Part shown: piece by piece, positions 1 to 21,965 of the stretch | How positions within the stretch are numbered: the stretch's first letter is position 1 | Layout: each line of letters starts with the position of its first letter | Virus record (IMG/VR): IMGVR_UViG_2917849834_000006 | Coordinates: 1 to 39,408 of that record | Direction: 5' to 3' (one strand) | Origin: a virus | Lineage: Duplodnaviria; Heunggongvirae; Uroviricota; Caudoviricetes | DNA length: 39,408 nucleotides | Made by a program: the position numbers and the translations under genes | The notes under the pieces: model-generated | Seen by the model: the letters and a program-made list of their open reading frames with translations, nothing else | Database searches by the model: none | Told to the model about the DNA's origin: nothing

Positions 1-90
1 TTGCCTCCCCCCCGTTGATGGGTAAAATAGCCGCAATTTTTCGTTTTCAACAAGCGCGGCGCGATGCCGCTTACTCAAGAAGAAAGAATT

Positions 91-165
91 ATGACGTTGT
101 CTCCTTATTTGCAAGAGGTGGCGAAGCGCCGCACTTTTGCCATTATTTCTCACCCCAATAATTAA
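91..165 (+). pseudogene. prfC: 5' fragment of the peptide chain release factor 3 gene (about 21 native codons) ending in a premature stop where phage DNA begins; marks the left prophage-host junction
   Basis: Translation of 91-165 is [24 protein letters not shown]; residues 1-22 match the RF3 N-terminus as I recall it (…AIISHPDAGKTT…), with divergence at about position 156 followed by AT-rich DNA. Confidence 0.5.
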
Positions 166-319
166 GCCCAAATTAAAGCTCTTTTACTCTTTCAAAGTCC
201 TTTCAGTTAATTGAGTGCTAATCATATAACTCATTTAATAACATGATGTTATGTGGTTTCTTTAATTGAAAATTCTTTCATGTAACTTTAAATCGATCAG
301 CTTGCTTTCATCAAAAATC

Positions 320-376
320 TGTACATGTGCTTGTACATAATGTACAAAACAGCAGAGGTGTTTTTTTATTTGTACA
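320..376. repeat. Cluster of four TGTACA hexamers immediately upstream of int, including the 17-bp palindrome TTGTACATAATGTACAA (331-347)
   Basis: Read directly; TGTACA at 320, 332, 341 and 371; the half-site resembles the immunity-region operators. Confidence 0.6.
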
Positions 377-385
377 AGGTGAGTA

Positions 386-1609
386 ATGGCGCTGTCTGAT
401 GCGTGGTTGCGTTCAGTCGTTGGAAAGGAACGTGATAAGGTTTTGGTTAAATCCGATCGTGATGGTCTGTCTGTCAGAGTATCACCGAAAGGTCGCGTAG
501 TGTTCCAATATCGTTATCAATGGGCAGGGAAAGGTGAGCGCCTTGATATCGGAACTTACCCGGCAACTGGATTAAAAGAGGCCAGAGAAGAGGTTATCCG
601 TCTCCGTGGTGAACTCGAGTCAAACCGCAATCCACGATTAGTCAAGCAGGCTGAAAAACGAAAAGCTACTGAAGCCATGACGGTAGAGTCTGTGATCCGT
701 GCCTGGTATGAAGCATATTGTGTAAAAAATAAAAAAGGTTCTGAACAGATACTCCGCTCGTTTGAGCTGCACCTGTTCTCTAAAATCGGGAATATCCCTC
801 ACGATGCAGCTACATTGCATGATTGGTTAGAAGTCCTGGAGCCTCTTAGCACTAAGACTCCAGCAATAGCAGACCGATTGCTAATTAACGCAAAGCAGGC
901 CCATGTCTGGGCGTATAAGAGAAAGCTCATTGAAACTCGCCCGCTGTCGGATATCACGGGTAAAGATATGGATATCCGTAAAGGTCAGAAGAAACGGTTT
1001 CTGACACATGATGAAATTAAAATCCTTTATGCTGCGATCGATGGTTCTCGAATGGTTCCTAAATACCGGGCCTTCATTAAACTATTGCTGCATTTTGGCT
1101 GCCGTAGTTCAGAGCTAATTACCGCCAGGGTGGACGATTTTGATTTCATTAATAAAGTATGGACTGTACCACCAGAACGACATAAGACTGGGGAGATAAC
1201 AGGCGAACCGCTAAAGCGGCCCATTATTGAACCGGTTGAAGAGCTTATAAAGTACGCTATTTCTATGAACAATGGTTCCGATATGCTTTTTACTAAGGAA
1301 GGAAGCAGGGAACCCGTTGGTCGGACATCATTGCAGTCGCTGCCTTACAATTTAATGCAGTACGCATGGCGGCGTTTGGGGTATCAATTCCCTCATTGGT
1401 CTCTTCATGATTTGAGGCGAACAGCACGAACAAACTTTTCTGATCTTACTGCGCCTCATATTGCAGAAATAATGCTAGGTCATAAACTGCCAGGGGTATG
1501 GCAAGTTTATGACAAGAGCGATTATCTAGAAGAACAGCGTAAAGCCTACCAGGCATGGTGGGAGAGAGTTGAATCGATCGTTACTTGTACTAACTCAGAC
1601 ACCAACTGA
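386..1609 (+). CDS. int: Phage tyrosine integrase (P4-like family)
   Basis: 407-aa ORF with RBS; C-terminal catalytic region HDLRRTARTNF…LGHKLPGVWQVYDKSDY typical of tyrosine recombinases; position next to the host junction. Confidence 0.9.
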   Translation: MALSDAWLRSVVGKERDKVLVKSDRDGLSVRVSPKGRVVFQYRYQWAGKGERLDIGTYPATGLKEAREEVIRLRGELESNRNPRLVKQAEKRKATEAMTVESVIRAWYEAYCVKNKKGSEQILRSFELHLFSKIGNIPHDAATLHDWLEVLEPLSTKTPAIADRLLINAKQAHVWAYKRKLIETRPLSDITGKDMDIRKGQKKRFLTHDEIKILYAAIDGSRMVPKYRAFIKLLLHFGCRSSELITARVDDFDFINKVWTVPPERHKTGEITGEPLKRPIIEPVEELIKYAISMNNGSDMLFTKEGSREPVGRTSLQSLPYNLMQYAWRRLGYQFPHWSLHDLRRTARTNFSDLTAPHIAEIMLGHKLPGVWQVYDKSDYLEEQRKAYQAWWERVESIVTCTNSDTN

Positions 1610-1796
1610 TAGTTCGCTCTGAGCTAGGAACGGATATTCTTATACAAACGGTGTCGCCAGATTGCAGTAAAACTATTGATTGATAAGTGAGCAGACACAG
1701 ATAAGCAGTCAATGAAACCAAAACTTCGCCAGCGATGACATTATCTGCAAGTCCTTTACTACAAACCTCCCATTTAGCTCTAATGTAAGGAATGCT

Positions 1797-2348
1797 ATGC
1801 ACCATCCAATACCCGCACAGTTAGATACGCCTGAAACCCTGAATTTTTGTCTGAAAGTTGTTCCTGATGCTCATGCTGTATTGATTAAAAATGAACCTTT
1901 CTCGGGAGCGGAAGTTATGGACTGCTTTTCGAATGTTGAAATGGTGATTGAACAGAATGGCGGAAGAGCTGTTTACGGTTGGGCTATCTGGCAGGTACCG
2001 GGAGTTTATATTGAAGCTGAGTTCCACTGTATTTGGGAGAATGATGCTGGAGAAATGCTGGATATCACGCCATATCCTTATAGTACGGAAAATATTTTAT
2101 TTCTACCTGATAGTACGCGGATTTATAGGGGGCAGCAGGTAGACAATATCCGCCAGGCTCTTGTAAATGATCCTGATGTGATCAGATGGTTGTATCTTGC
2201 TAGAAAACGTTTTGAAATATTAAATACTGGTGACCTAGCGAACCAGCATGGGCATATTGAATTGCCACCCAAATTAGCCAAAGAGTTTAGCAAAGTTGTC
2301 GATGAGATAGAAAGGCTGTATTCCCGACTAAATCTCCGATATTCATGA
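1797..2348 (+). CDS. Hypothetical protein, low-GC cargo gene between int and xis
   Basis: 183-aa ORF; no recognisable motifs; lower GC than flanking phage genes. Confidence 0.5.
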   Translation: MHHPIPAQLDTPETLNFCLKVVPDAHAVLIKNEPFSGAEVMDCFSNVEMVIEQNGGRAVYGWAIWQVPGVYIEAEFHCIWENDAGEMLDITPYPYSTENILFLPDSTRIYRGQQVDNIRQALVNDPDVIRWLYLARKRFEILNTGDLANQHGHIELPPKLAKEFSKVVDEIERLYSRLNLRYS

Positions 2349-2452
2349 CGAGAGGGTATTGCTATAACCACTGACCATTGAAGATAACGCCTACGGCAGG
2401 CTGTTCGAGTTAGTTGTATTATGGCGGCATATGCCGCCAGTTTTAATCAGTA

Positions 2453-2656
2453 TTAGCACAGCCACGAGGTCATACCTGTAATTACGGCTTTAGTTAATGC
2501 AATTAACTCCTTGTCAGAAAGTTCTTCTAGTTCCTTTCCAGGAAATAGGCCTGGTAACATGTCATTAGCAATATGTTCCAGCTCAATATATTTTCCTAAA
2601 AGTAAGGAGTCTTTGTATAGTTCAATCAGTTCTTCTTTCATCGATAAATCCCTCAT
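2453..2656 (-). CDS. Small hypothetical protein (67 aa), convergent with the upstream cargo ORF
   Basis: ORF only; acidic helical composition. Confidence 0.35.
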   Translation of the reverse strand: MRDLSMKEELIELYKDSLLLGKYIELEHIANDMLPGLFPGKELEELSDKELIALTKAVITGMTSWLC

Positions 2657-2963
2657 TCTACGCTAGAAAAAACAATCAGTTAACGTTATATAACTAGGCG
2701 ATACTCCCAGAATTCAATTCACAATAGTGCGCACTTATTGTGAAAAGTCGGTCGTGATATGTTTTGCAGATTGCCTAAAGTGACAGTATCTTGCAGCGCA
2801 TACATCAAGAATCGCCGCCGGGCGCACCAGCTGACTGACCTGTTCCCCGTTGTTCAAGGATAGCGTTGCATCGACCCGTTGAACTCACAGCATAGCGCAA
2901 GCTGTCAGATTAGGTTTGGCTTTGTGCCATAGATGTGTCAGCTCCCATCTGAGATAATACACG

Positions 2964-3158
2964 TTACTCAATAACTCCAGCAAACCTGTATATCTTGCGT
3001 GATGCCCATTTATTTGGGCAGGATTTAATATCAGGATCTGGAAAATCAGGCCTGTATTTCTGGCCAGTTCTCCTGTTTACGCTATTCCAGCGAAGAACAG
3101 TCGATACTGAAACGCCACAGAATTCGGCAACTTGTTTTGTTGTCATTAAGTTGTTCAT
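2964..3158 (-). CDS. xis: Excisionase / AlpA-like HTH DNA-binding protein
   Basis: 64 aa; TTKQVAEFCGVSVSTVLRW helix-turn-helix typical of AlpA/Xis family; first gene of the leftward operon near int. Confidence 0.7.
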   Translation of the reverse strand: MNNLMTTKQVAEFCGVSVSTVLRWNSVNRRTGQKYRPDFPDPDIKSCPNKWASRKIYRFAGVIE

Positions 3159-3778
3159 TACTTCACCTCCTGCGGCGGCTCCGGTAGCGGTATCCAGTGG
3201 GTTACTTTCGATGCCGGTTCTTCCCCATCGTCAGTAACTGCCCACCATTTGTTTCTCGACCAATCGTAATACCCTTCGAAGGTATCGCACTCAGTCCAGC
3301 CGTAAGACTTACCCCAACACCAAACATACCGTTTATCGTTCGGCATTCGCTCACTACAGCTTATCCAACCATCCGGAATTACCGGAGAGTTGCCCGACAG
3401 CTCGTTCAACTTGTAAGTCTGGCTTACAGGTTCGGCACCATGAATCATGGCGGTGCGGCGGGCGTTCCAGCCTTCATCAAAACCGACTATGCCATTATTT
3501 AAAGACGGACGAGCATCTGGCACCACCGGTACTGGTTTGGCTATATATAGCGGCTGAACATACCAGCCCTTTGATAACCAACTGTCAGCAATGTTTTTAC
3601 TCCTGGTTATTGCCGGAATACCTAAGCCATTGTCTGAATGCAGCCATGCCACCGGATCCTCTTCCAGCGATGCCAGAGCAATTTCATAAGCACGGCGCTC
3701 AATATCGTCTCGAACCTCTAGGCTGCTGATTCGTTCTTTGATTTCTTTAATCAGTTCTTTATTGGTAAATGTGGTCAT
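3158..3778 (-). CDS. DUF551-like phage early protein
   Basis: 206 aa; C-terminal W/C-rich segment ending THWIPLPEPP characteristic of DUF551. Confidence 0.55.
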   Translation of the reverse strand: MTTFTNKELIKEIKERISSLEVRDDIERRAYEIALASLEEDPVAWLHSDNGLGIPAITRSKNIADSWLSKGWYVQPLYIAKPVPVVPDARPSLNNGIVGFDEGWNARRTAMIHGAEPVSQTYKLNELSGNSPVIPDGWISCSERMPNDKRYVWCWGKSYGWTECDTFEGYYDWSRNKWWAVTDDGEEPASKVTHWIPLPEPPQEVK

Positions 3779-4139
3779 TATGCTCAGCCTCCGGCGCTTT
3801 TGGCATTACTGCCCAGTGAGTGATATTGACGTTTTCAAGGTCCCCGACCTGAAATGTCCACTGCCATTCTCCGGTTTCTTTTTGCCCCCATGTGTACCAG
3901 AGAGAACGCCAGCCAATCAGCCAGCCTTCTCCGTTAGCATCAAATAACAGAACACTTTCATTTGCTGGTGGCAGTTCAGCTGACACTGGTATTATTTTGT
4001 TTTCCAGTGCCGCACATTTAGCTTCAAGCGCGTCGAATTTACGTACCAGGTACTCAGCATTTGTTTCGTTCACTTTCAGATCTCGCGGTACACATCTCCC
4101 ACGAAGAAACCCTTCCATTTCGAAAACATTCATGCGCAT
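3759..4139 (-). CDS. Hypothetical phage early protein (DUF551-like C-terminus)
   Basis: 126 aa; W-rich C-terminus …ITHWAVMPKAPE; overlapping, coupled with neighbours. Confidence 0.5.
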   Translation of the reverse strand: MRMNVFEMEGFLRGRCVPRDLKVNETNAEYLVRKFDALEAKCAALENKIIPVSAELPPANESVLLFDANGEGWLIGWRSLWYTWGQKETGEWQWTFQVGDLENVNITHWAVMPKAPEAEHNDHIYQ

Positions 4140-4666
4140 TTGCGTAACTCCGATAACTCGTTAAAACGTTCCATAAACATCCCGTAGGCATGGTCCGGTG
4201 CCAGTGGAATCACTTTGAACATATCTGTTGCCGGGATACCTTCCAGTACAGGCCAGAAAGAGCCATCATCAAGCCCGAGATCGCGGCGTTCGGTTGCCAG
4301 CATAATGAGATCGGCATATTTCACTGGCGTGCTCATAACCGGAGGTAACCCGTATTTCTCACGGATTACGGCGTCTATTTTTTCTTCCATCCGTTTATAG
4401 TCAGGAAGAAGGCGTTTCAGTGGTGCGGGGATGTCCTGGCAATACGCTTCTGTTGCATCATGCATTAACGCTTCAAAAGCAAATTCCTGATGCACCAGCT
4501 GGCTGCAAAGCACCGCATGTTGGGCGACGCTGTAGAAGTGAGAAAGATGACCGGCAAAGCGGCAGATATTTGAAAGGGAAACCGCGATATCGTTAATAAC
4601 GATGTCGTCTTTATTTATCTTGTCATAATAAAAATGCTTCCCGGAAAAAGTTTTAATAAATGACAT
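4130..4666 (-). CDS. HD-domain phosphohydrolase-like protein
   Basis: H…HD motif (AQHAVL…LMHDATEAY); likely start is the internal ATG at 4666 preceded by GGAG, rather than the track start at 4729. Confidence 0.6.
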   Translation of the reverse strand: MSFIKTFSGKHFYYDKINKDDIVINDIAVSLSNICRFAGHLSHFYSVAQHAVLCSQLVHQEFAFEALMHDATEAYCQDIPAPLKRLLPDYKRMEEKIDAVIREKYGLPPVMSTPVKYADLIMLATERRDLGLDDGSFWPVLEGIPATDMFKVIPLAPDHAYGMFMERFNELSELRKCA

Positions 4667-5337
4667 TTCGTTCTCCACTTTATATGCGCTGCACCGCGCT
4701 GAATTTTGGGAAAAGGAAGCCCTCACCATCCGGCGATTATTGAGTCAATTACGTTTCAATAGATGCCCCAGCAGGGGCGGTTAGTTTCTCCACAAAACAG
4801 AGAAGAACACCTGCGGTGACAGCCGCCCGGATGGATTGGGTTATGAGCCCGTCGTCCGGTGATGCTCTTCTCTGTTTTGTAAAAAGAGCGGTACCAGCCG
4901 GAAGCAATGGTACAAACTGATACCGCCAAGGCAGTGGCTGTTGTGGCGGGGTTGTCACTCAGGCGTATGGTCAGCCTGACAACCCGGTGTCCTCAACGGG
5001 GAAAGAGTAACCCCGCCATACTTACCGCCGCGCCATTTCGCGGATTACCACAACGCTGAGAGCACTTAGCCAGTTCGGCGCCACACTTTGTCTCGGCTCC
5101 ATAAATGCTCTTATCGTTGCACCCTGGTCTCTTCCCAGGCGTCAAACCGAATCGCCACGCTGGTTAGGCGTCTTATCAGCATCATCATTGACTTGCACAT
5201 TCCGGCTACCTGGTTTGTTTGCCCGAGCAAGGAGTGGATTGTCCCCTTTAACGTCTCCAGACCGCTAACGACGCATGTGCCATACGCCGTGTTACAACCA
5301 AACTTTGTTTGAATCTTGCCTGTTGCATGTTTCTTTT

Positions 5338-5371
5338 GGATACATTATGTATCCCAAGGGTACATTGTCAA
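5338..5371 (-). promoter_or_regulatory. Candidate leftward early promoter (PL-like) with overlapping operators
   Basis: Minus strand TTGACA (5371-5366), 16-nt spacer, CATAAT (5349-5344); 17-bp palindrome GGATACATTATGTATCC (5338-5354) and operator-like site TGTATCCCAAGGGTACA (5348-5364). Confidence 0.45.
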
Positions 5372-5398
5372 GTATAAAAAAACCTGCCGAAGCAGGTT
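5372..5398 (-). terminator. Rho-independent terminator downstream of the cI-like gene
   Basis: Minus-strand hairpin AACCTGC-ttcg-GCAGGTT followed by a T7 run, 13 nt after the cI stop. Confidence 0.6.
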
Positions 5399-5410
5399 CA
5401 TAAATATTGA

Positions 5411-6085
5411 TTAGGTCTTTATTTTGTATCTTCTTGGTTTTCCCGAGAAAATCACTGTACCAATTATAGAGCAATTACCGTTGATCTTAATGTAAGGTTC
5501 AGGCCAGTTTGGGTTTAATGCTTTGAGGTAACGCTGTGTTCCATCTTCTATCAACCGCTTGAAGGTGGTTTCGCCTGTATCGTGCATCAATGCAATAACG
5601 TCGTCACCGTGGCAGGCAGGGACTTCAGGATCAACAAAAATCATGTCTCCTGGGCGGTACTCATCAATCATTGAATCACCAATCACCCGCAAGATATAAG
5701 TCATTTCACCACAGGGTACAGGGCAGGGATAAGTTTCTGCTGTGCTCAAATCAACCTCAGAATAACCAACTTCTTTCCATGCTCCGGCCTGTACCCATGA
5801 TATGACAGGGACTAACGTTATTTGTTTGTTAGTGATTGAAACATCAGGTTTTTTTGTGATGTTCGTTGTCTGGTGTTCTTGATCAAGCCATCCGACAGGC
5901 AGGTCGAAACATTTTTCGATGTGCCGTGCCATGCTGTCACCGATATTTTTAGTTGCACCATCTCCCATAAACCTGCTGGTCTGGGTTGGCTCGCGATCAA
6001 TCATGGTGGCAAAGGAAGAATTCCCGCCAACACCATCTCTCAGTTTTCTGGCGTTAGACCGCCGGATGTCATGGACTGTTTTCAT
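5411..6085 (-). CDS. cI-like repressor with C-terminal S24 (LexA-like) autopeptidase domain
   Basis: 224 aa; N-terminal HTH region and C-terminal VIGDSMIDEYRPGDMIFVDPE S24 signature; divergent from the cro-like gene. Confidence 0.85.
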   Translation of the reverse strand: MKTVHDIRRSNARKLRDGVGGNSSFATMIDREPTQTSRFMGDGATKNIGDSMARHIEKCFDLPVGWLDQEHQTTNITKKPDVSITNKQITLVPVISWVQAGAWKEVGYSEVDLSTAETYPCPVPCGEMTYILRVIGDSMIDEYRPGDMIFVDPEVPACHGDDVIALMHDTGETTFKRLIEDGTQRYLKALNPNWPEPYIKINGNCSIIGTVIFSGKPRRYKIKT

Positions 6086-6100
6086 AATGAAATTAAAACC

Positions 6101-6169
6101 CTTGTACCGTTAAGGTACAAGTATCTTGAAGGTTCATTTTAATCATGTAATATGTACATCGGAGGTACA
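6101..6169. promoter_or_regulatory. OR-like operator/promoter region with two 17-bp operators (TGTACC-N5-GGTACA at 6103-6119; TGTACA-N5-GGTACA at 6153-6169)
   Basis: Perfect palindrome CTTGTACCGTTAAGGTACAAG at 6101-6121; second near-identical site overlapping the cro RBS; candidate rightward promoter TTGAAG (6126-6131), 16 nt, TAATAT (6148-6153). Confidence 0.6.
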
Positions 6170-6175
6170 TATTGT

Positions 6176-6376
6176 ATGAAAGCGTATTGGGACTCTTTAA
6201 CCAAAGAACAGCAGGGCGAGTTGGCCGGAAAAGTTGGCTCAACACCAGGCTACTTACGGCTGGTTTTCAATGGTTATAAAAAAGCCAGTTTTGTGCTGGC
6301 TAAAAAAATTGAGCAATGCACGTCAGGTGCAATTACGAAATCTGACTTAAGACCGGATATCTATCCGAAAGATTAA
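6176..6376 (+). CDS. Cro-like / YdaS-like HTH regulator
   Basis: Small basic protein divergent from cI; likely start is the ATG at 6176 after GGAGG, rather than the track start at 6152. Confidence 0.65.
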   Translation: MKAYWDSLTKEQQGELAGKVGSTPGYLRLVFNGYKKASFVLAKKIEQCTSGAITKSDLRPDIYPKD

Positions 6377-6407
6377 CAGAACACCTTCAATTTTTAACCA
6401 CAGAACG

Positions 6408-6971
6408 ATGAGGCTAACCGTGGGTAAGCATCACTGGAAAGTAGAAAAACAGCCTGAGTGGTACGTGAAAGCTGTCAGAAAAACTATCGCGGCATTGCCG
6501 GGGGGTTACGCTGAAGCTGCTGACTGGCTGGATGTAACAGAGAACGCATTATTTAACCGCCTTCGTGCCGATGGCGATCAGATTTTCCCGCTGGGATGGG
6601 CAATGATTTTACAGCGCGCGGCTGGCACTCACTACATTGCGGATGCTGTCGCACAGTCTGCTGGTGGGGTGTTTGTATCGCTTCCTGAAATTGAGGAAGT
6701 AGAGAACGCCGATATAAACCAGCGCCTGCTGGAAGTCATCGAACAGATCGGGAGTTACTCAAAGCAGATTCGTTCGGCAATCGAAGATGGGGTAGTGGAG
6801 CCACACGAGCAGACAGCAATTAATGATGAGTTGTATCTGTCAATTTCGAAGCTCCAGGAGCATGCAGCACTGGTCTACAAAATCTTTTGCGCTCCAGAAA
6901 AGAGTGACGCCCGCGAGTGTGCAGCTCCGGGCGTCGTGGCGTTTTGTGTCTGTGGAGAAACTAACGCATGA
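6408..6971 (+). CDS. CII-like regulatory protein (CP76/YdaT-like), tentative
   Basis: 187-aa ORF directly after cro; family assignment is from position and general resemblance only. Confidence 0.4.
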   Translation: MRLTVGKHHWKVEKQPEWYVKAVRKTIAALPGGYAEAADWLDVTENALFNRLRADGDQIFPLGWAMILQRAAGTHYIADAVAQSAGGVFVSLPEIEEVENADINQRLLEVIEQIGSYSKQIRSAIEDGVVEPHEQTAINDELYLSISKLQEHAALVYKIFCAPEKSDARECAAPGVVAFCVCGETNA

Positions 6972-7804
6972 ACAGTTTAACGGCAAATAATCGTTTGTCG
7001 CAACAGCTGGTGGTCAGTGTCGCTGAACACCTGTTGTTACGGCATGAATGCAGATTACCAAATCACCTGGCTGTAAGTAACCACAGAGAACTTTACCTGA
7101 CTGTGGGGGGCGAGTTGTGCAGGAACTTAACCGCTGGTTTCGTGACGGAAGAGGGCTTTATGTCCATGTTATTCGTTGGGAGCCAGAAACACAGCGCGTT
7201 ATCTATCTTCGCAAAGACTACCCGCATGAGTGCTTTAGTCCTTTGTGGAAATTCAGGCGTGATTTTGTTGAGTGTGAAGGACCACCAGCACATTGATTCT
7301 GCCATTCTGGGACGTTACACTGTTCAGGCACCTTATAAAGCGGGTGCCGGGATTGGCGTCCTGGAATTGCATACGGCGACAATTGGCGCGTTAGCGTCTT
7401 TTTTGTTGCTACAACTCAGCTATACCCAAATTATGGTGGGCTGGGTGGGGGCACCGAAAGGTGCGCCGGTTTCCGTATGCGCCGGTTACGCCAACCCTGC
7501 TCAGTTCACCACCAGCGAAATTGGCGTTTCCGGTGGTGGAAGTTATCCATTGCATACGGAGGCTGCCATCATGGCTACTGTCCCAGCCCTCTCTCGTCTG
7601 AATGATGACGACTTACATAAACTCAGTTATGTAACAACTGCACTACGTGCTCTGCGCAAGGTAACTCTTTCGGATCCGCAGGCGCATCAGGTTCTGGTAG
7701 AAACCCTTCTTAACTTGCAGGCTGAACGTATTCGTCTGGCGGATAAGGCTAATTTTCATATTCACCGTCTCCTTAATATCAGCGGAGGGCATCGTCATGC
7801 TTAA
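6968..7804 (+). CDS. Hypothetical protein (early right operon)
   Basis: 278-aa ORF with overlapping stop/start coupling; an alternative-frame protein-like ORF at about 7078-7260 leaves the reading frame in this segment uncertain. Confidence 0.4.
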   Translation: MNSLTANNRLSQQLVVSVAEHLLLRHECRLPNHLAVSNHRELYLTVGGELCRNLTAGFVTEEGFMSMLFVGSQKHSALSIFAKTTRMSALVLCGNSGVILLSVKDHQHIDSAILGRYTVQAPYKAGAGIGVLELHTATIGALASFLLLQLSYTQIMVGWVGAPKGAPVSVCAGYANPAQFTTSEIGVSGGGSYPLHTEAAIMATVPALSRLNDDDLHKLSYVTTALRALRKVTLSDPQAHQVLVETLLNLQAERIRLADKANFHIHRLLNISGGHRHA

Positions 7805-8033
7805 TCCGTTGATTCTCAATATTTGCCGTTTGCTTCAGCGTAAAAAAACATCAATTCCTACAGTTGGGCAGTGGTACACCACGCCTGCAGGGCATGTTCT
7901 ACGTGTTAGCCTGGTTGACCGTGAATGTCAGAAGGTGATTTGTGAACCGCTGGGCCGTAATTACCGCGTCAGTATGCCGCTTATAGCCTTTCGCTCCGGA
8001 AAAAACATGAAGCATCTCGGAGGTGCAGCATGA
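7797..8033 (+). CDS. Hypothetical protein
   Basis: 78-aa ORF, ATGCTTAA overlap with the upstream gene. Confidence 0.4.
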   Translation: MLNPLILNICRLLQRKKTSIPTVGQWYTTPAGHVLRVSLVDRECQKVICEPLGRNYRVSMPLIAFRSGKNMKHLGGAA

Positions 8034-8848
8034 GTATGGAGCTGATGGTTAAAGCGATGAAAATTCGAGTGGGTAATCCATTGCGAAAACTGGTTCTGAT
8101 CAAGCTGGCTGATAATGCCAGCGATCAGGGTGAGTGCTGGCCCAGCTACCAGCATATTGCTGACCAGTGCGAGATTAGCAAACGTTCTGTGATGAATCAT
8201 ATTGCGGCCCTTTGTGAGTCCGGGCTGGTAAAAAAAGTCACCCGGAAAGGTGAAAAAGGTAACTCAAGTAATATCTATCTCCTTCATCTGGATGGTGCAG
8301 GAGATTCACTAGGGGGTAGTGCAAATAATTCACTATCTGGTGCAGCAAATTCACCAGGTAGTGCAGGAGTTGCACCAGGGGGTAGTGCAGGAGATTCACC
8401 CAGAACCAGTCACTCTTTTGAACCAGTCAAAGAATCAGTCAATGAACCAATAGCTTTTGGTGCATCTGCTGATGAGTCTGTGCGAGTTCGTTCAAACCGA
8501 CCGGAATACTCTCCGGAGTTTGAGCAGGCATGGCTGGCATATCCCAAACGTGCTGGTGGCAATTCAAAATCTGCAGCCTTCAAAGCCTGGAAAGCCCGTT
8601 TGAATGAGGGGGTAAACCCCGAAACCATGCTGGAAGGTGTGAAACGCTACGCGGGCTGGGTATCTGCGATGGGTAACAGTGGCACACAATTTGTGAAACA
8701 GGCTGTCACGTTCTTTGGTCCGGATCGTCATTTCGAAGAATCCTGGGAAGTTCCTGCGGTATCTGCAGCCAGACGCGAGGACCCGTACTTCAAAGCCAGT
8801 TACGACAACGTGGACTACAGCCAGATCCCGGCAGGATTCAGGGGGTGA
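8030..8848 (+). CDS. Replication initiation protein (phage replisome organiser N-terminal HTH domain, O-like)
   Basis: N-terminal KLVLIKLADNASDQGECWPSYQHIADQCEISKRSVMNHIAALCESGLV winged-helix domain; internal G/S/A-rich linker encoded by iteron-like DNA repeats. Confidence 0.65.
   Translation: MSMELMVKAMKIRVGNPLRKLVLIKLADNASDQGECWPSYQHIADQCEISKRSVMNHIAALCESGLVKKVTRKGEKGNSSNIYLLHLDGAGDSLGGSANNSLSGAANSPGSAGVAPGGSAGDSPRTSHSFEPVKESVNEPIAFGASADESVRVRSNRPEYSPEFEQAWLAYPKRAGGNSKSAAFKAWKARLNEGVNPETMLEGVKRYAGWVSAMGNSGTQFVKQAVTFFGPDRHFEESWEVPAVSAARREDPYFKASYDNVDYSQIPAGFRG
8290..8400 (+). repeat. Iteron-like direct repeats inside the replication gene (candidate origin)
   Basis: Five or more copies of (G/A)GTGCA(G/C) with repeated GGTGCAGGAGATTCAC and GGGGGTAGTGCA units. 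Confidence 0.5.
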
Positions 8849-9339
8849 TCATGAGTCTTTTGAATGAAGTTCAGAAATTCATTGAAGCCCATCCGGGGTG
8901 TACTTCCGGAGACATTGCGGATGCTTTTACAGGTTACTCACGGCAGCGCGTTCTGCAGTCAGCAAGCAAGTTACGTCAGAGTGGGCGTGTGGCTCACCGT
9001 TGTGAAGGGGATACACGCAGACATTTCCCGCGCCTGACTGAGAGAGCGCAGGAGCCGGAACCACAACCAGTTCGTGAAACCAGACCTGTGCGCAATTTCT
9101 ATGTCGGCACTAACGATCCACGGGTGATTTTGTGCCTGACCCGCCAGGCTGAAGAACTGGAGTCAAGGGGCTTATACCGTCGTGCTGCAACCGTGTGGAT
9201 GGCGGCATTCCGTGAAAGCCACTCCCAGCCAGAACGAAACAATTTTCTGGCGCGTCGTGAGCGGTGCTTACGGAAAAGCAGCAAGCGCGCTGCATCGGGT
9301 GAAGAGTGGTATCTGTCAGGGAATTACGTGGGGGCTTAA
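8845..9339 (+). CDS. PerC-like transcriptional activator family protein, tentative
   Basis: 164 aa; C-terminal LYRRAATVWMAAFRES… resembles PerC-family proteins common in enterobacterial prophages. Confidence 0.35.
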   Translation: MIMSLLNEVQKFIEAHPGCTSGDIADAFTGYSRQRVLQSASKLRQSGRVAHRCEGDTRRHFPRLTERAQEPEPQPVRETRPVRNFYVGTNDPRVILCLTRQAEELESRGLYRRAATVWMAAFRESHSQPERNNFLARRERCLRKSSKRAASGEEWYLSGNYVGA

Positions 9340-9992
9340 TGAGTAATAAATATTGCCAGGCGCTGGTGGAACTGCGGAACAAACCAGTCCATGAACTGAA
9401 GGAAGTGGGCGATCAGTGGCGCACGCCGGACAACATTTTCTGGGGAATTAACACCCTGTTTGGCCCGTTTGTTCTGGATCTGTTCACTGACGGTGATAAC
9501 GCCAAATGTGCTGCGTATTACACGGCGGAAGACAACGCGCTGGCGCATGACTGGTCAGAACGTCTTGCGGAGCTTAAAGGTGCTGCCTTTGGTAATCCCC
9601 CATACAGCCGCGCCAGTCAGCATGAGGGGCAATACATCACCGGCATGCGTTACATCATGAAACATGCCAGTGCCATGCGTGATAAGGGCGGGCGCTATGT
9701 TTTCCTGATCAAAGCTGCCACCAGCGAAGTGTGGTGGCCGGAAGATGCGGACCATATTGCTTTTATTCGCGGGCGTATTGGTTTTGAACTGCCTGCCTGG
9801 TTTATCCCGAAGGACGAGAAGCAGGTGCCGACAGGAGCGTTCTTCGCTGGTGCTATTGCTGTTTTCGACAAGACCTGGAAGGGACCGGCAATCAGCTACA
9901 TCGGGCGCGATGAACTTGAGGCATGTGGTGAGGCGTTTCTGGCGCAGGTTCGCCAGCAGGCGGAAAAACTGGTCAGGGAGATGGCGGCATGA
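9339..9992 (+). CDS. Phage DNA N6-adenine methyltransferase (Dam family)
   Basis: GNPPY motif (AFGNPPYS); likely start is the ATG at 9339 (TAATG overlap with the upstream stop). Confidence 0.8.
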   Translation: MSNKYCQALVELRNKPVHELKEVGDQWRTPDNIFWGINTLFGPFVLDLFTDGDNAKCAAYYTAEDNALAHDWSERLAELKGAAFGNPPYSRASQHEGQYITGMRYIMKHASAMRDKGGRYVFLIKAATSEVWWPEDADHIAFIRGRIGFELPAWFIPKDEKQVPTGAFFAGAIAVFDKTWKGPAISYIGRDELEACGEAFLAQVRQQAEKLVREMAA

Positions 9993-10315
9993 CGACGTTA
10001 ACTCAATGCCAGCAGCAGGTGCTGGATATGCTGATTTCTTATCAGAAAGAACGTGGCTTCCCGCCAACCAATCAGGAGGTGGCAACCATGCTGGGATACC
10101 GTTCGGTGAATGCAGCGGTGGAGCATCTTCGCTCACTGGAGAAAAAAGGCGTCATCACGATAAAGCGTGGTGTGGCCCGGGGGATAACGCTTCATACCGC
10201 GGTGAAGGACGACGACAGCGAGGCGGTCGAGATTATCCGATCACTGCTTGCCGGTGAGGAAAACGCCAGGCTGCGTGCAGCCTACTGGTTACATGAGAGG
10301 GGCCTGAAAGTATGA
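9989..10315 (+). CDS. LexA-type N-terminal DNA-binding domain protein
   Basis: 108 aa; winged-HTH resembling the LexA DNA-binding domain; no peptidase domain. Confidence 0.5.
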   Translation: MTTLTQCQQQVLDMLISYQKERGFPPTNQEVATMLGYRSVNAAVEHLRSLEKKGVITIKRGVARGITLHTAVKDDDSEAVEIIRSLLAGEENARLRAAYWLHERGLKV

Positions 10316-10701
10316 AGCTGATTCTGCCTTTTCCGCCCAGCGTGAACACGTACTGGCGACACCCCAACAAAGGGGCGTTTGCAGGTAAGAGCCTGATAAG
10401 CGCGGCGGGACGCAAATTCCAGAGCGCGGCGTGTGCAGCAATAGTTGAGCAGTTACGTCGTCTGCCAAAACCAACGTCGGCACCTGCTTCAGTGGAGATC
10501 GTGTTGTTTCCTCCGGATAACCGGATCCGCGATCTGGACAACTATAACAAGGCGCTGTTTGACGCCCTGACCCACGCGGGTGTGTGGGAAGACGACAGTC
10601 AGGTGAAAAGAATGCTGGTGGAGTGGGGACCGGTTATCCCGGAAGGGAAGGTCGAGATCACTATCAGTAAGTACGAGAAAACGGCGGGTGCAGCCGCCTG
10701 A
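10312..10701 (+). CDS. rusA: RusA-type Holliday junction resolvase
   Basis: 129 aa; LPFPPSVNTYWRH…DLDNYNKALFDALTHAGVWEDDSQV matches the RusA family. Confidence 0.9.
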   Translation: MKLILPFPPSVNTYWRHPNKGAFAGKSLISAAGRKFQSAACAAIVEQLRRLPKPTSAPASVEIVLFPPDNRIRDLDNYNKALFDALTHAGVWEDDSQVKRMLVEWGPVIPEGKVEITISKYEKTAGAAA

Positions 10702-10720
10702 TCAAGAGGAGAAACGAAGT

Positions 10721-11518
10721 ATGAATAATCTGATGGTCATTGATGGTATTGAAGTTCGTCGTGATGCTTATGGGCGTTACAGCCTGAACGATCTGCACAG
10801 GGCTGCCGGTTCTCTGGATAAGCATAAGCCTGCATACTGGCTCCGCAATGAGCAAACTGAACGTTTAATAAGCGAGTTGCAGATTTGCAACTCGGTCAAT
10901 ATAGAGCCAGTTAACGTTATTCGTGGCGGAAATAACCAGGGGACGTATGTCTGCAAAGAACTGGTGTATGCCTATGCAATGTGGATCAGCCCGTCATTCC
11001 ATCTGAAGGTGATCCGTACTTTCGACATGGTAACCAGCGCACCTGAAAAATTATCCGGACAGGCTGCTGACAAGATGCAGGCTGGCGTGATTCTGCTGGA
11101 CTTTATGCGTCGGGAGTTAAACCTGTCTAACTCATCTGTGCTTGGGGCCTGTCAGAAACTCCAGGAGGCTGTTGGCTTACCGAATCTGGCACCGCGCTAT
11201 GCCATTGATGCTCCTGCTGACGCGCCTGATGGCTCAAGTCGCCCTACGCTGTCGCTGAGTGCACTGCTGAAACAGTATGGTATCCGCCTTACGGCTAATC
11301 AGGCATATCACCAGATGGTGAAGCTGGGGATCGTCGAACAGCGCGAACGATACAGCCGTACCGCGATTAACAACATCAAAAAATTCTGGTCGCTGACAGC
11401 GAAAGGCTGCATGTTCGGCAAGAACATCACCAGTCCCGCAAATCCGCGCGAGACGCAGCCGCATTTCTTCGAATCCCGATTCCCTGAGCTGTTAAAGCTG
11501 CTCGATACCGTTCATTGA
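10721..11518 (+). CDS. KilA-N domain protein (antirepressor-like)
   Basis: KilA-N signature GTYVCKELVYAYAMWISPSFHLKVI; likely start is the ATG at 10721 after AGGAG, rather than the track start at 10688. Confidence 0.75.
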   Translation: MNNLMVIDGIEVRRDAYGRYSLNDLHRAAGSLDKHKPAYWLRNEQTERLISELQICNSVNIEPVNVIRGGNNQGTYVCKELVYAYAMWISPSFHLKVIRTFDMVTSAPEKLSGQAADKMQAGVILLDFMRRELNLSNSSVLGACQKLQEAVGLPNLAPRYAIDAPADAPDGSSRPTLSLSALLKQYGIRLTANQAYHQMVKLGIVEQRERYSRTAINNIKKFWSLTAKGCMFGKNITSPANPRETQPHFFESRFPELLKLLDTVH

Positions 11519-11519
11519 G

Positions 11520-12515
11520 GTGACCGTGAGAGCACTACTGACCCCTGAAATTGCCCCGCGCATGGGGATCGTATTGTTCAGGCCAGGTTCAGAGCTGATG
11601 CCCTTGTTTATGCAGGGGCGTGTCCTGCTGGAGCCTGAGCCGGAACGTTATTCATCTTTCGCCAGTGGTGCCGTTCCGGCGGCATCACAACCGCTGGCGG
11701 ATGATCCTGCCGTTCAGGCCGTGTTCCGCAATGAGGCAGTGATCCGTCGTGCTGGTGGCGTGGAATGTCTTGAAAGCTGGTTACTTCGTGAAAAAGGCTG
11801 CCAGTGGCCTCATTCCGACTGGCACAGCGAGAACATGACCACAATGCGACACGCGCCGGGCGCAATCCGTCTGTGCTGGCACTGCGATAACCAGCTGCGC
11901 GATCAGTTCACGGAACGGCTGGAATCAATGGCAACGGATAACTGTGCCCGCTGGGTGTTGTCTGTAGTCCGTCGGGATCTCGGTTTTGATGATAACCATG
12001 CCGTGACAATGCCGGAACTGTGCTGGTGGCTGATTCGTAATGACCTGGCGGATGCCTTACCTGAAAGCGCAGCCCGTAAGGCGCTGAGATTACCGAAACC
12101 TGTTGTGCCGTCTGTCACCCGGGAAAGTGACCTTGTGCCTTCGGTTCCTGCCACCAGCATCATCCAGGATAAAGCGAAAAAGGTGCTGGCGCTGAAAGTG
12201 GATCCGGAGTCGCCAGAGTCTTTTATGTTACGCCCAAAACGCCGCCGCTGGGTTAATGAAAAGTACACGCGCTGGGTTAAGACACAGCCGTGTGCATGTT
12301 GTGGAAAGCCTGCTGATGATCCCCACCACCTGATAGGCCATGGTCAGGGTGGAATGGGTACAAAAGCGCATGACCTCTTTGTGTTGCCTTTGTGCAGAAA
12401 GCATCACGACGAGCTGCATGCGGATACCGTGGCATTTGAAGAGAAGTATGGCTCTCAGCTGGAGCTGATATTTCGTTTTATCGATCGTGCGCTGGCAATT
12501 GGCGTATTGGCGTAA
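11520..12515 (+). CDS. DUF968 / Ref-like HNH-motif protein
   Basis: C-terminal cysteine/histidine cluster CACCGKPADDPHHLIGHG…CRKHHDELH; GTG start. Confidence 0.55.
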   Translation: MTVRALLTPEIAPRMGIVLFRPGSELMPLFMQGRVLLEPEPERYSSFASGAVPAASQPLADDPAVQAVFRNEAVIRRAGGVECLESWLLREKGCQWPHSDWHSENMTTMRHAPGAIRLCWHCDNQLRDQFTERLESMATDNCARWVLSVVRRDLGFDDNHAVTMPELCWWLIRNDLADALPESAARKALRLPKPVVPSVTRESDLVPSVPATSIIQDKAKKVLALKVDPESPESFMLRPKRRRWVNEKYTRWVKTQPCACCGKPADDPHHLIGHGQGGMGTKAHDLFVLPLCRKHHDELHADTVAFEEKYGSQLELIFRFIDRALAIGVLA

Positions 12516-12528
12516 GTGGAGAACGAGC

Positions 12529-13281
12529 ATGAACCTTGAAGCCTTACCAAAATATTACTCCCCAAAATCTCCAAAATTGAGCGATGACGCACCGGCGACA
12601 GGCTCAGGTGGTTTAACGATTACGGATGTGATGGCTGCGCAGGGGATGGTGCAGTCGAAAGCACCGCTTGGGTTTGCCTTATTCCTGGCAAAAGTTGGTG
12701 TTCAGGATCCTCAATTTGCGATTGAAGGTCTGCTCAATTACGCGATGGCACTGGATAACCCGACATTGAACAAATTGAGTGAAGAAACCCGGTTACAGAT
12801 CATCCCTTACCTTGTGAATTTTGCCTTTGCTGATTATTCCAGGTCTGCGGCAAGTAAGGCTCGCTGTGAGCATTGTGCTGGTACTGGATTTCATAATGTA
12901 TTGCGCGAAGTGGTGAAACACTCCAGAAGCGGGGAATCTGTTATCAAGGAAGAGTGGGTGAAGGAACTATGTCAGCATTGCCATGGTAAGGGAGAAGTCA
13001 GCACGGCTTGCAGAGGGTGTAAGGGTAAAGGCATTGTCCTGGATGAAAAAAGAACCCGGCTTCATGGCGCGCCTGTTTATAAGATTTGTGGGCGTTGCAA
13101 TGGAAATCGGTTTAGTCGTTTACCGACCACACTGGCACGACGTCATGTCCAGAAGCTGGTACCAGACCTGACTGATTATCAGTGGTACAAAGGATATGCA
13201 GACGTCATTGATAAACTGGTAACAAAGTGCTGGCAGGAAGAAGCATTCGCAGAGTTACAGTTGCAAAAAGTGACACGATAG
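12529..13281 (+). CDS. Late gene antiterminator Q-like protein
   Basis: Zinc-binding CxxC…CxxC cluster (CEHCAGTG…CQHCHGKG…CRGCKGKG…CGRC); position just upstream of the lysis cassette; likely start at 12529. Confidence 0.65.
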   Translation: MNLEALPKYYSPKSPKLSDDAPATGSGGLTITDVMAAQGMVQSKAPLGFALFLAKVGVQDPQFAIEGLLNYAMALDNPTLNKLSEETRLQIIPYLVNFAFADYSRSAASKARCEHCAGTGFHNVLREVVKHSRSGESVIKEEWVKELCQHCHGKGEVSTACRGCKGKGIVLDEKRTRLHGAPVYKICGRCNGNRFSRLPTTLARRHVQKLVPDLTDYQWYKGYADVIDKLVTKCWQEEAFAELQLQKVTR

Positions 13282-13472
13282 CTACATTTTTAATGATTTT
13301 CTCCGCATAATGCTTGCAATTTTCAAAAAATATGGTTAGCCTTAACGTAAAGATGGGCATTGAATGTCTAACTTTTATAAACCCGCTCAGGCGGGTTTAT
13401 GTTGCATGTTTTTTGAACAGGTGATATTGTGATCTCCATCACATTTGTGATGCTGGTTGAAAGGAGATCACC

Positions 13473-13676
13473 ATGCAAAATAGTAAACACACGACCAAGA
13501 AGGTCGTGGCAATTGCAAATAATATTGAGATTGGCTCAGTATTAGTGTCTGCTACTCAGAAAAGTATTCTGCTGAATACTGGTTGGGAATTACCAATTAT
13601 AGAAGTAGACAAGCTGTCTCATTCCTATGAGGTTTACATTAAACCTCGTCATAAAACCCTCCATCCTTCGCGATGA
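13473..13676 (+). CDS. Small hypothetical protein between Q and the lysis genes (moron position)
   Basis: 67-aa ORF with GGAG RBS, lower GC, followed by an intrinsic terminator. Confidence 0.45.
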   Translation: MQNSKHTTKKVVAIANNIEIGSVLVSATQKSILLNTGWELPIIEVDKLSHSYEVYIKPRHKTLHPSR

Positions 13677-13693
13677 TGAAAGTAAGATTTTTG

Positions 13694-13719
13694 AGGCCGC
13701 CTACGGGCGGCCTTTTTTA
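13694..13719 (+). terminator. Rho-independent terminator upstream of the holin gene
   Basis: AGGCCGCC-tacg-GGCGGCCT followed by a T6 run. Confidence 0.65.
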
Positions 13720-13805
13720 TGCGCACTTCTGCAAATCAGCGTTATAACCAGCTTCTTTCCCTTTTACTCGTTGCACTTCCGGTAACCGGAGGTGGGAATT
13801 ATGAA

Positions 13806-14141
13806 ATGCACAACGATCCTCATTCCTGGCCTGACTTACTTGAATTGTTACAGAGCTGGTGGCGTGGAGACACACCACTGGGCGCAGTGATTATGTCGAT
13901 TGTTATGGCTGGATTGCGCATTGCCTATTTTGGCGGTGGTGGTGGCTGGAAGCGAAAAACGCTCGAGATTTTGCTCTGTGGTGCTCTTACGCTGACTTTT
14001 GCATCCGCGCTTGAGTATGTCGGATGGCCTAAATCGCTTTCTGTTGCCATTGGTGGCGGCGTTGGGCTGATCGGTGTCGATGCTATTCGTGGGGCTGCAA
14101 TGCGAGTAATCGGTAACAAGTTTGGTAGCTCGAAGGAGTAA
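13806..14141 (+). CDS. Holin (lambda S-like, three TM segments)
   Basis: Three hydrophobic segments and charged C-terminus; immediately upstream of the endolysin gene; start uncertain (ATG at 13806 preferred over track start 13719). Confidence 0.7.
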   Translation: MHNDPHSWPDLLELLQSWWRGDTPLGAVIMSIVMAGLRIAYFGGGGGWKRKTLEILLCGALTLTFASALEYVGWPKSLSVAIGGGVGLIGVDAIRGAAMRVIGNKFGSSKE

Positions 14142-14144
14142 TTT

Positions 14145-14621
14145 ATGCAGGTGTTAAATTCCCAGCGTAAAGCTTTCCTTGATATGGTGGCATGGTCAGA
14201 AGGAACGGATAACGGGCGACAACCGACACGTAACCACGGTTATGACGTTATTGTCGGTGGAGAACTCTTCACTGATTACTCCGATCACCCTCGCAAACTT
14301 GTCACGCTAAACCCGAAACTCAAATCAACAGCTGCAGGCCGTTATCAACTTCTTTCACGCTGGTGGGATGCTTACCGCAAGCAGCTTGGGCTGAAAGACT
14401 TCTCTCCCAGAAGCCAGGATTCAGTGGCATTACAGCAGATTAAAGAGCGTGGCGCTTTACCGATGATTGATCGCGGTGATATCCGTCAGGCTATCGATCG
14501 TTGCAGCAATATCTGGGCGTCATTACCCGGTGCAGGTTACAGTCAGTATGAACATAAAATCGGTGACCTGATTGCCCGATTTAAAGAGGCTGGTGGGGTG
14601 GTAAATGAAGTTGAGTTATAA
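14145..14621 (+). CDS. R: Endolysin, lambda R-type lytic transglycosylase
   Basis: 158 aa; near-identical over most of its length to lambda R as recalled (…NQRKAFLDM…AWSEGTDNGRQ…YDVIVGGELFTDYSDHPRKLV…). Confidence 0.95.
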   Translation: MQVLNSQRKAFLDMVAWSEGTDNGRQPTRNHGYDVIVGGELFTDYSDHPRKLVTLNPKLKSTAAGRYQLLSRWWDAYRKQLGLKDFSPRSQDSVALQQIKERGALPMIDRGDIRQAIDRCSNIWASLPGAGYSQYEHKIGDLIARFKEAGGVVNEVEL

Positions 14622-14994
14622 GCTGGTTATCTCTGCTTTCTTCGTTACTGTCGTCAGTTCTATCATCTGGTCAGCCAACTACTACAGCAAATATCAGCAC
14701 GAAAAGAAACGTGCTGATGATGCTGCACGAAATGCTGAATCAGCAACTGCTATTACCAATAACGTCCTGCAATCAGTGCAAATCATAAATACAGTTCTGG
14801 AGGCTAACCAGCATGCAAAACAGCAGATCGCACTGGAGTCACAGAGAACCCAGGAAGATATCAAAGCGGCTGTTGCGGATGATGATTGTGCTTCACGTCC
14901 TGTGCCTGCTGCCGCTGCTGACCGGTTGCGGAAATTCGCGAACGGTTTACGTGAGCGCTCCGGTGGCACCACTGCCAGCCAGTCTGACTTCTGA
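14605..14994 (+). CDS. Rz-like inner-membrane spanin
   Basis: N-terminal TM segment, coiled-coil-like periplasmic region, position after the endolysin. Confidence 0.7.
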   Translation: MKLSYKLVISAFFVTVVSSIIWSANYYSKYQHEKKRADDAARNAESATAITNNVLQSVQIINTVLEANQHAKQQIALESQRTQEDIKAAVADDDCASRPVPAAAADRLRKFANGLRERSGGTTASQSDF

Positions 14995-15154
14995 TACTCC
15001 TGTACCGTTTATACCCAATCCGCTGACGTATGGTGCCAGTCTGGAGTTGAATGTGAGTCTGTTGTCAGCGTTGGGACAATGCAATATTGACAAAGCGGGG
15101 ATTAGAAAGATAGAGGCGAGCCGGTCAGGTAGAAATGAATCAGGCTCAAAGTGA
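14879..15154 (+). CDS. Rz1-like outer-membrane lipoprotein spanin, starts inside Rz in the +1 frame and extends beyond it
   Basis: Signal peptide with lipobox LLTGC and proline-rich mature region. Confidence 0.65.
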   Translation: MMIVLHVLCLLPLLTGCGNSRTVYVSAPVAPLPASLTSDTPVPFIPNPLTYGASLELNVSLLSALGQCNIDKAGIRKIEASRSGRNESGSK

Positions 15155-15236
15155 AGCGGAAAAGGTCTGTGGCACAAACTGATGCTGCCATAATTACAGC
15201 CTGATGACTTGTGGAATGAAACATGTTGAACCTCCT

Positions 15237-15797: not shown

Positions 15798-16084
15798 CAG
15801 GCTATTGCGAAAGCCACAAAAGTGAAGGCTGGAAGCAATACAAGCCAGGACAATCCCGTCATCAGCGCGGTTATGGTTCGAAGTGGGACGGTATCCGCGT
15901 GCGCGTCCTGAAGCGTGACAAAGGTTTATGTCAGTTATGTCTGCGTGCTGGTGTGGTGCGTGAGGCGAAAACCGTTGACCACATAATTCCTAAAGCGCAT
16001 GGCGGCACAGATTCAGACAGCAATCTGCAGAGCCTGTGCTGGCCGTGTCATAAGGCGAAGACGGCTCGTGAACGGCTGAAGTAA
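15734..16084 (+). CDS. HNH endonuclease (packaging-associated)
   Basis: HNH motif …DHIIPKAHGGTDSDSNLQSLCWPCHKAK…; directly upstream of the terminase small subunit; ATG at 15734 with GGAG RBS. Confidence 0.85.
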   Translation: MPPRTPKACRVRGCRHTTTDPSGYCESHKSEGWKQYKPGQSRHQRGYGSKWDGIRVRVLKRDKGLCQLCLRAGVVREAKTVDHIIPKAHGGTDSDSNLQSLCWPCHKAKTARERLK

Positions 16085-18433: not shown

Positions 18434-18444
18434 CTGAGGTAATT

Positions 18445-20496: not shown

Positions 20497-20510
20497 TCAG
20501 GAGAAATACG

Positions 20511-21954: not shown

Positions 21955-21965
21955 AGGTAGCCCAA

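Follow-up and report, generated by a model that had tools for sequence, protein, structure and literature searches.

Into which host site is this prophage inserted, and what becomes of the host gene at that site? The window analysed here is the whole stretch of 39,408 nucleotides of the IMG/VR virus record IMGVR_UViG_2917849834_000006. An initial annotation, made from the sequence, placed the insertion in the 5' end of prfC, which encodes RF3, rather than at a tRNA gene.

Host DNA at the left end of the window

Positions 1-155 were aligned pairwise with K-12. All 155 of 155 bases were identical to the yjjG-prfC spacer and prfC codons 1-22, and no relatedness was seen beyond them. Position 1 falls directly after the yjjG stop codon of a K-12 derivative, and the annotated prfC ATG is position 91. 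The spacer between yjjG and prfC (1..90, plus strand), which contains the native prfC ribosome-binding site, is 100% identical to K-12. A candidate native prfC promoter, TTGCCT-16-TAAAAT, is located at 1-28 (plus strand) by consensus match only (9/12). The truncated native prfC 5' end (91..165, plus strand) was identified by the ORF list and the K-12 prfC alignment. It is a 24-codon stub whose residues 1-22 are RF3 residues 1-22, followed by a phage-derived NN and TAA. All 22 of these residues match K-12 prfC, as expected from the initial annotation, which had read the left-flank ATG and its first ~22 codons as the RF3 N-terminus. Codon 22 is CCC in the stub and CCG in the native gene, a synonymous change. 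The last host base is 155, at the end of ATTATTTCTCACCC (142-155); it is followed by 230 bp of AT-rich phage DNA (156-385), and int starts at 386. The frame had been described as collapsing about 230 bp before int, a figure that is accurate to the base.

The host match was searched in 5,426 complete E. coli genomes. Positions 1-155 were matched in 5,425 of them, mostly at 100% identity, and the match always ended at base 152-155, except in genomes that also have the adjoining phage DNA. The prfC reading had been made to depend on a match of ORF 91-165 to prfC, and what was found is the 155/155 identity to the annotated yjjG-prfC locus. A coincidental resemblance of this ORF to RF3, with the phage in an intergenic or other site, has a negligible probability against this nucleotide identity in thousands of genomes and against the rest of prfC being found at the opposite prophage end in relatives.

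The site had also been said not to be a tRNA, and ARAGORN indeed found 0 tRNA or tmRNA genes across the 39.4-kb window. A P4-like island or satellite at a tRNA site was ruled out, as the window holds no tRNA/tmRNA and the junction is inside the prfC coding sequence. The integrases of P4-type islands and satellites do share the Pfam architecture found here (Arm-DNA-bind_3, central and catalytic domains), with int located by att and transcribed away from it. The difference from the P4-type tRNA-site islands is at the junction, where there is no tRNA/tmRNA and the target is a protein-coding 5' end. The element must therefore rebuild an N-terminus and expression signals, not a tRNA 3' end.

Many IMG/VR viral contigs (L092, L094-L096 and others) start exactly 385 bp before int, as the window does, and this position is the yjjG end. 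The shared start indicates that the left boundary of the window looks like a prophage-caller convention and not a biological end.

The attachment core in prfC codons 18-22

The four attachment sites were aligned with the window as attL, K-12 as attB, phages cdtI and Ayreon (Escherichia phage Ayreon, MF807953) as attP, and strains GPEC1337 and DCE7 as attR. The 14-bp ATTATTTCTCACCC is the sole block identical across attB, attP (cdtI), attL, and attR. Its attL copy is located at 142..155 and covers codons I18-I19-S20-H21-P22. The comparison with the uninterrupted K-12 locus, proposed in the initial annotation, was thus the one that defined the core, and the attachment site expected within the first prfC codons is now narrowed to codons 18-22. 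One base to the left of the core is an A/C mismatch, at which attL has the host C and attR has the phage A. Because each junction keeps its parental side at this base, the crossover lies inside the 14-bp block or at its edge. The Ayreon attP has C at the mismatch position, which stretches its identity with attB to 20 bp.

To the left of the core, the attP sites of cdtI and Ayreon match the phage side of the GPEC1337 attR. To the right, the P' arm of the phage attachment site (156..385, plus strand) is collinear with and nearly identical to the cdtI attP, with one mismatch over 230 bp; the Ayreon attP matches this arm with more mismatches than cdtI. The sharing of the core by attP, attB, attL, and attR indicates site-specific recombination inside the IISHP codons. 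Window positions 1-385 are very probably the attL of a lambdoid prophage that integrated via Int-mediated site-specific recombination into E. coli prfC codons 18-22. In this process attP and attB recombine at the 14-bp core. The first 22 native codons stay behind at attL as a stub, together with the native promoter and ribosome-binding site. Excision would probably need Int together with the excisionase encoded at 2964-3158.

The core codes for the residues that lead up to and into the GTPase P-loop (IISHPDAGKT). Truncated prfC remnants were examined at 16 related loci of Gamma- and Betaproteobacteria, and every one of them has kept the AIISHP-coding stretch. This pre-P-loop conservation probably explains the use of the same site across many hosts by an integrase family that includes SXT/R391.

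A known class of prfC-site lambdoid prophages

The initial annotation was right about the insertion in prfC. Its view of this site as unusual did not hold, since prfC is a published common site (PMC2323221, PMC8138268, PMC10132054). The attL was found in 701 of the 5,426 complete E. coli genomes (~13%), and the matching attR in 692. Described prfC-site lambdoid phages include cdtI (NC_009514; Asakura 2007 as cited in PMC8138268) and the Stx phages of O103 STEC (PMC2323221). An Stx1 phage in prfC that alters the RF3 N-terminus was reported by Ogura 2007 (PMC2323221), and Stx1a and Stx2c phages at prfC were catalogued in CC119 STEC (PMC10132054). The integrases of the cdt1-phage and SXT were placed in one cluster, all inserting at prfC, by Smyshlyaev 2021 (PMC8138268).

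The int gene of the window (386..1609, plus strand) encodes a 407-aa tyrosine integrase of the P4/SXT type. Its arm-binding, central, and catalytic domains are Arm-DNA-bind_3 (PF13356), Phage_int_M (PF22022), and Phage_integrase (PF00589), all above the cut-offs. The gene is 96-98.5% identical in nucleotide sequence to the int of cdtI, Ayreon, and 27 Stx1a/Stx2c phages, with cdtI at 98.5%. The domains, the sequence relationship, and the prfC insertion all place it in the prfC-targeting SXT cluster of the IntSXT subgroup (Smyshlyaev 2021).

The window resembles the cdtI, Ayreon, and Stx phages in several respects. The nucleotide identity of 96-98.5% covers both int and the P' arm, which are also collinear and form the left end. 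The 14-bp core shows no differences, the closest lysogens have the same P arm, and the late genes are lambdoid. The order dinI-attP-int of cdtI also agrees with the window, which ends in a dinI-like gene. Differences are found in the cargo and in portions of the early and tail regions. The genes cdt, cif, nleH, and stx are absent from the window, which instead has an RT_UG17 and SLATT pair by dinI and a 183-aa ORF by int. The kind of element is already known: it is a further member of the described class of prfC-site lambdoid prophages with the cdtI/Stx1a/Stx2c integrase type.

The main value of the analysis is in annotation, as the 69-75-nt 'hypothetical pseudogene' at the left edge of such prophages is the native prfC start. 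The 14-bp core and the arm sequences permit exact boundaries to be set for a common prophage class, including the toxin phages of STEC and EPEC.

The prophage body

The lambdoid prophage body extends over 156..39408 (plus strand) by PHROG matches, and its right end is cut by the window. The PHROG matches identified a CI-like (CI/LexA-like) repressor (5411-6085, minus strand), a Q antiterminator (12487-13281), an endolysin (14145-14621), a large terminase (16700-18433), a portal (18627-19868), a major head protein (20511-21716), a tape measure (25304-28546), and J (30933-34415). The xis gene (2964..3158, minus strand) encodes an excisionase of 64 aa that has a helix-turn-helix motif; it matched phrog_1553 'excisionase' with E = 1.3e-35, and its matches to Pfam HTH_17 and MerR were weak and below the curated cut-offs. 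With int and xis, these genes form a complete phage set and bear out the assignment of the element as a prophage. The PHROG matches and the synteny with the GPEC1337 prophage indicate that a temperate siphovirus-type gene set is present.

Among whole relatives, the prfC prophage of E. coli GPEC1337 comes closest, with 76-84% coverage and ~97% identity. No complete genome covered at least 80% of either window part (1-25000 or 25001-39408), except GPEC1337, which covered 84% of the second part.

The element could instead be a fixed, excision-defective (cryptic) prophage remnant, with the junction as a fossil without ongoing att function. Only the attL is visible here, and some relatives, such as DCE7, have IS elements and pseudogenes in the tail region. 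Against this, int and xis are full-length, the major morphogenesis, lysis, and regulatory genes all give full-length PHROG matches, and cdtI and Ayreon (the latter on K-12), both recovered as free phage genomes, have int and attP sequences that are 96-98.5% identical to those of this element. A cryptic remnant is thus quite improbable.

The int gene points away from attL and is co-directional with the native prfC promoter. The native promoter region, the 24-codon stub, and int (1-386) all run in one direction, and no intrinsic terminator was predicted between them. Based on this arrangement, int may be transcribed from the host prfC promoter in the lysogen.

attR and the rebuilt prfC gene of related lysogens

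No 12-mer from the left 300 bases recurs in the window as a second copy of the junction. The lack of any repeat of at least 12 bases from this 300 bp indicates that attR is outside the window. The window ends within a dinI-like gene, of which the 3' end (23 codons and the stop; 39337..39408, minus strand) was identified by the match of its translation to a DinI-like C-terminus. In relatives, this gene is the last phage gene before attR. The last 2,500 bases of the window are 96.9% identical to GPEC1337, in which the attR core starts 445 bp further. By colinearity with GPEC1337, the attR core of this prophage probably lies ~445 bp beyond base 39408. The statement in the initial annotation that attR is not in the window agrees with both the missing junction copy and this predicted position. 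The predicted attR would read ...AACCTTTGC(A/C)ATTATTTCTCACCCGGA(C/T)GCCGGTAAG, with ATGACAAGCCTTTTGGCCGCAGAGGTAGCGAAAAGAAGA upstream and the prfC frame open.

In the lysogens, the attR carries a phage-borne ATG and 16 codons fused in frame to the remaining prfC. An intact annotated prfC of 1,587 nt (528 codons) was present in 5/5 lysogens examined (DCE7, GPEC1337, ETEC1718, WL7562, and 01A20CPO004), and the five hybrid translations have an identical N-terminus and a single terminal stop. The initial annotation presumed that the phage supplies a replacement 5' end for prfC, and this is what is found in these relatives. Since attR lies outside the window, the replacement 5' end and the intactness of prfC in this host are extrapolated from the ~97%-identical relatives.

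In the hybrid RF3, the phage replaces residues 1-17. The changes are limited to residues 2-8, and the product of 528 aa is one residue shorter. The conserved segment before the P-loop, starting with K or R, is retained. The native RF3 N-termini of other genera (MSNPFLEEVARRR..., MSPSEFAREVAKRR..., MTNQAAEVAKRR...) vary in just the replaced region, which suggests that the substitution falls within natural variation.

The hybrid prfC genes differ from K-12 by 22-30 synonymous and 0-2 non-synonymous changes, mostly divergence predating the integration. Because most of the differences are older than the event, the counts were not accepted as a test of post-integration selection.

RefSeq labels the attL stub of lysogens (L002 49505-49573; L004 49520-49588) a pseudogene ('incomplete hypothetical protein') and gives the attR hybrid as a normal prfC. 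Together with a survey that scores prfC as disrupted (PMC3603311), this annotation indicates that pan-genome analyses may treat the locus inconsistently. Surveys of that kind may mis-score a rebuilt gene.

Probable expression of the hybrid prfC

A scan upstream of the hybrid prfC found no sigma-70 consensus promoter (at least 9/12) on the sense strand; the matches of the scan were on the dinI strand. The best candidate by eye is TTTTCT-17-CATAAT (8/12), with CATAAT located 22-27 nt upstream of the phage ATG. The hybrid prfC is probably expressed from a weak phage promoter in the P arm, and its product is probably functional.

Integration could also effectively knock out prfC. The hybrid would then have no working promoter or ribosome-binding site, and the lysogens would be RF3-deficient, a state tolerated because prfC is non-essential. 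The missing consensus promoter on the sense strand and the removal of the authentic promoter and ribosome-binding site are in line with a knockout. Transcription and translation of prfC in such lysogens were stated to be unknown by Ogura et al. (PMC2323221), Bobay et al. count prfC among the genes 'disrupted' by prophages (PMC3603311), and delta-prfC E. coli routinely serve as recipients (PMC2791158). However, the phage attP has an in-frame ATG and codons that preserve the conserved pre-P-loop motif. A comparable replacement ORF is found independently in R997 of SXT/R391, an element whose Int shares only 39% identity with that of the phage. Such conservation in both the phage and R997 is hard to explain if the fusion is irrelevant. 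In addition, the hybrid ORF is intact in 5/5 lysogens from different sources, and the junction is present in ~13% of complete E. coli genomes. A knockout is therefore unlikely. For SXT, the element reportedly supplies a promoter and 5' end, with RF3 activity retained (Hochhut and Waldor, 1999). Expression of a functional hybrid from the phage P arm is the preferred reading.

Two palindromes that resemble the LexA-box consensus CTGT-N8-ACAG, CTGTATTTGTATACAG and CTGTATGAATAAACAG, are present upstream of the dinI-like gene in relatives, past the position where the window ends (L004 7855-7810). Their distance from the start codon of the hybrid prfC, which is on the other strand, is ~150-210 bp.

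A more elaborate scheme is a reciprocal promoter swap, in which RF3 synthesis would depend on the weak phage promoter in the ~13% of E. coli genomes with this junction, termination fidelity would be tied to the prophage state or the SOS response, and the constitutive host prfC promoter would read through the stub into int. Here the P-arm promoter would be overlapped by putative arm-type Int sites (TGTACA) and would lie ~150-210 bp from the LexA-box-controlled divergent dinI promoter. This scheme is speculative, and we consider it rather improbable.

Comparison with SXT/R391 elements

The SXT/R391 elements have long been known to insert at the prfC 5' end (PMC2791158), and the window shares several features with them. 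The target is the prfC 5' end at the IISHP(D) codons, and the core begins at the same base (ATTATTTC-CACCC). The element-borne replacement start codon and N-terminal codons end in ...KRRTFAII. Tandem TGTACA repeats are present on both att arms, and the homologous integrase has the same three-domain architecture. The circular record of R997 begins at ATTATTTCCCACCCTGA and finishes with its own replacement RF3 N-terminus. In Proteus mirabilis H63, the native prfC stub is found at the SXT-type junction, followed by element DNA. At this P. mirabilis junction, the host identity extends ~9 bases further right (through TGATGCCG) than at the phage junction, and the R997 record starts with the same sequence. 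The SXT core is 17 bp.

Several differences separate the two groups. The Int of the window and that of R997 are 39% identical in amino acids over the full length (E = 2e-90), whereas the SXT/R391 family is defined by nearly identical Int, ~99% to IntSXT (PMC2791158). In SXT/R391, int is oriented towards the core, with xis placed between the two; the phage int is transcribed away from the core, at a distance of 230 bp. SXT/R391 is conjugative and not a virus, and the genes by att in R997 include mobI, one that is ParM-like, and one for a LexA-family regulator. No conjugative backbone gene (tra, mobI, setCD/setR) was found in the window, where all scanned ORFs matched phage families, and no conjugation genes are annotated in the related GPEC1337 prophage. 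Membership in SXT/R391 was rejected on the 39% Int identity, the lack of conjugation genes, and the opposite orientation of int. A core in the pre-P-loop codons combined with an element-borne N-terminus is, as judged from sequence comparison, a solution common to phages and ICEs.

TGTACA repeats on the attachment arms

Four TGTACA motifs were counted in the P' arm, at 320-325, 332-337, 341-346, and 371-376. They are putative arm-type Int-binding sites and overlap the int leader. The 39.4-kb window contains seven TGTACA copies, and 4/7 fall inside 57 bp (320-376). Four further copies are present in the P arm, as seen in relatives. The layout upstream of int is kept in 16 loci from Pantoea to Variovorax, with a tandem pair 50-75 bp upstream and one copy adjoining the int start. 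The SXT/R391 element R997 has tandem TGTACA pairs on both att arms. The repeats on both arms are probably arm-type sites for the N-terminal domain of Int.

The palindromic TGTACA is kept on the att arms over integrases that are 39%-99% identical (window 320-376; L004 7790-7665; L087 150-180 and 385-415; L175 975-1000; the 16 loci), and it mostly occurs as two tandem copies with 5-6 bp between them. SXT/R391 and relatives that do not target prfC are among the elements with these arm repeats. The arm-site motif appears to be more conserved than the core specificity.

Related integrases in other genera and the lepA site

An alignment-based scan with one genome per species returned 80 integrase loci. 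In 16 of the 80, a host prfC stub ends exactly at the core motif, 214-252 bp upstream of int, and the Int is 45-99% identical. These 16 loci include Pantoea, Serratia, Pseudomonas, Marinobacterium, Halomonas, Microbulbifer, Methylomonas, Burkholderiaceae, Methylibium, and Variovorax. A scan of IMG/VR viral contigs for diverse attP also returned 80 loci, all of the E. coli type at 98-100%, and it was uninformative on the replacement ORF across genera.

Two sister integrases, ~45% identical to the window Int, were found 222-227 bp downstream of MKNIRNFSIIAHI... stubs. These lepA-type loci are in a 51-kb circular phage-like replicon of Enterobacter asburiae (L171 2200-2500) and in Acinetobacter johnsonii (L039 3720-4000). 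The MKNIRNFSIIAHI stub peptide gave three hits only in PDB, all to LepA/EF4 residues 1-13, with the weak E-values of a short peptide. The lepA-like mini-ORF gave no match by blastn against E. coli genomes, the query being short and diverged.

The lepA-site elements resemble the prfC prophages in using the homologous pre-P-loop position of a paralogous translational GTPase, and the Enterobacter element also has an attP-borne replacement mini-ORF adjoining dinI. They differ in the target gene, the Enterobacter arm repeats are GTCCAC/GGACAC-like and not TGTACA, and the comparison covers two loci only. Prophages at the lepA 5' end are presumably of the Gifsy-1 type. The lepA gene is listed as a Salmonella prophage hotspot (PMC3603311), and no paper linking the prfC and lepA sites was found in the literature searched. 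These likenesses suggest that the integrase family makes use of a pre-P-loop DNA stretch that is conserved in translational GTPases. The lepA parallel is a modest but tidy point on the evolution of att specificity.

In a rough NJ tree without support values, the prfC-targeting integrases were not monophyletic; the lepA-targeting ones and integrases with no assigned target were nested among them. This branching hints at target switching among the integrases. For many integrases with TGTACA arms that are 40-57% identical (L015, L018-L029, L031-L037, L040-L044, L169, and L170), no prfC- or lepA-like stub was found within 450 bp upstream, and no tRNA gene was found in the 17 of these loci that were scanned.

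Cargo at the two prophage ends

The prophage has a slot with variable cargo at each end. In the one that separates dinI from the tail fibre genes, PADLOC identified an RT_UG17 and SLATT_5 pair (37214-39113, minus strand). The reverse transcriptase of 458 aa (RT_UG17, E = 2e-158) overlaps an SLATT_5 two-transmembrane protein of 180 aa ('RTasSLATT', E = 1e-56). Based on these matches, the pair is a candidate anti-phage system of the DRT type. In relatives, the dinI-side slot holds a TIR-reverse transcriptase (WL7562) or cdtABC/cif/nleH (DCE7).

Directly downstream of int is a 183-aa ORF (1797-2348, plus strand). It matched only phrog_37148, of unknown function, and gave no match in Pfam, NCBIfam, or PADLOC. 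The int-side slot, which may be a second defence or moron hotspot, holds a CHAT-domain protein in DCE7 and a different hypothetical protein in GPEC1337. In the E600003 prophage, a Dsr1 sirtuin gene is present somewhere in the left part that matched the window.
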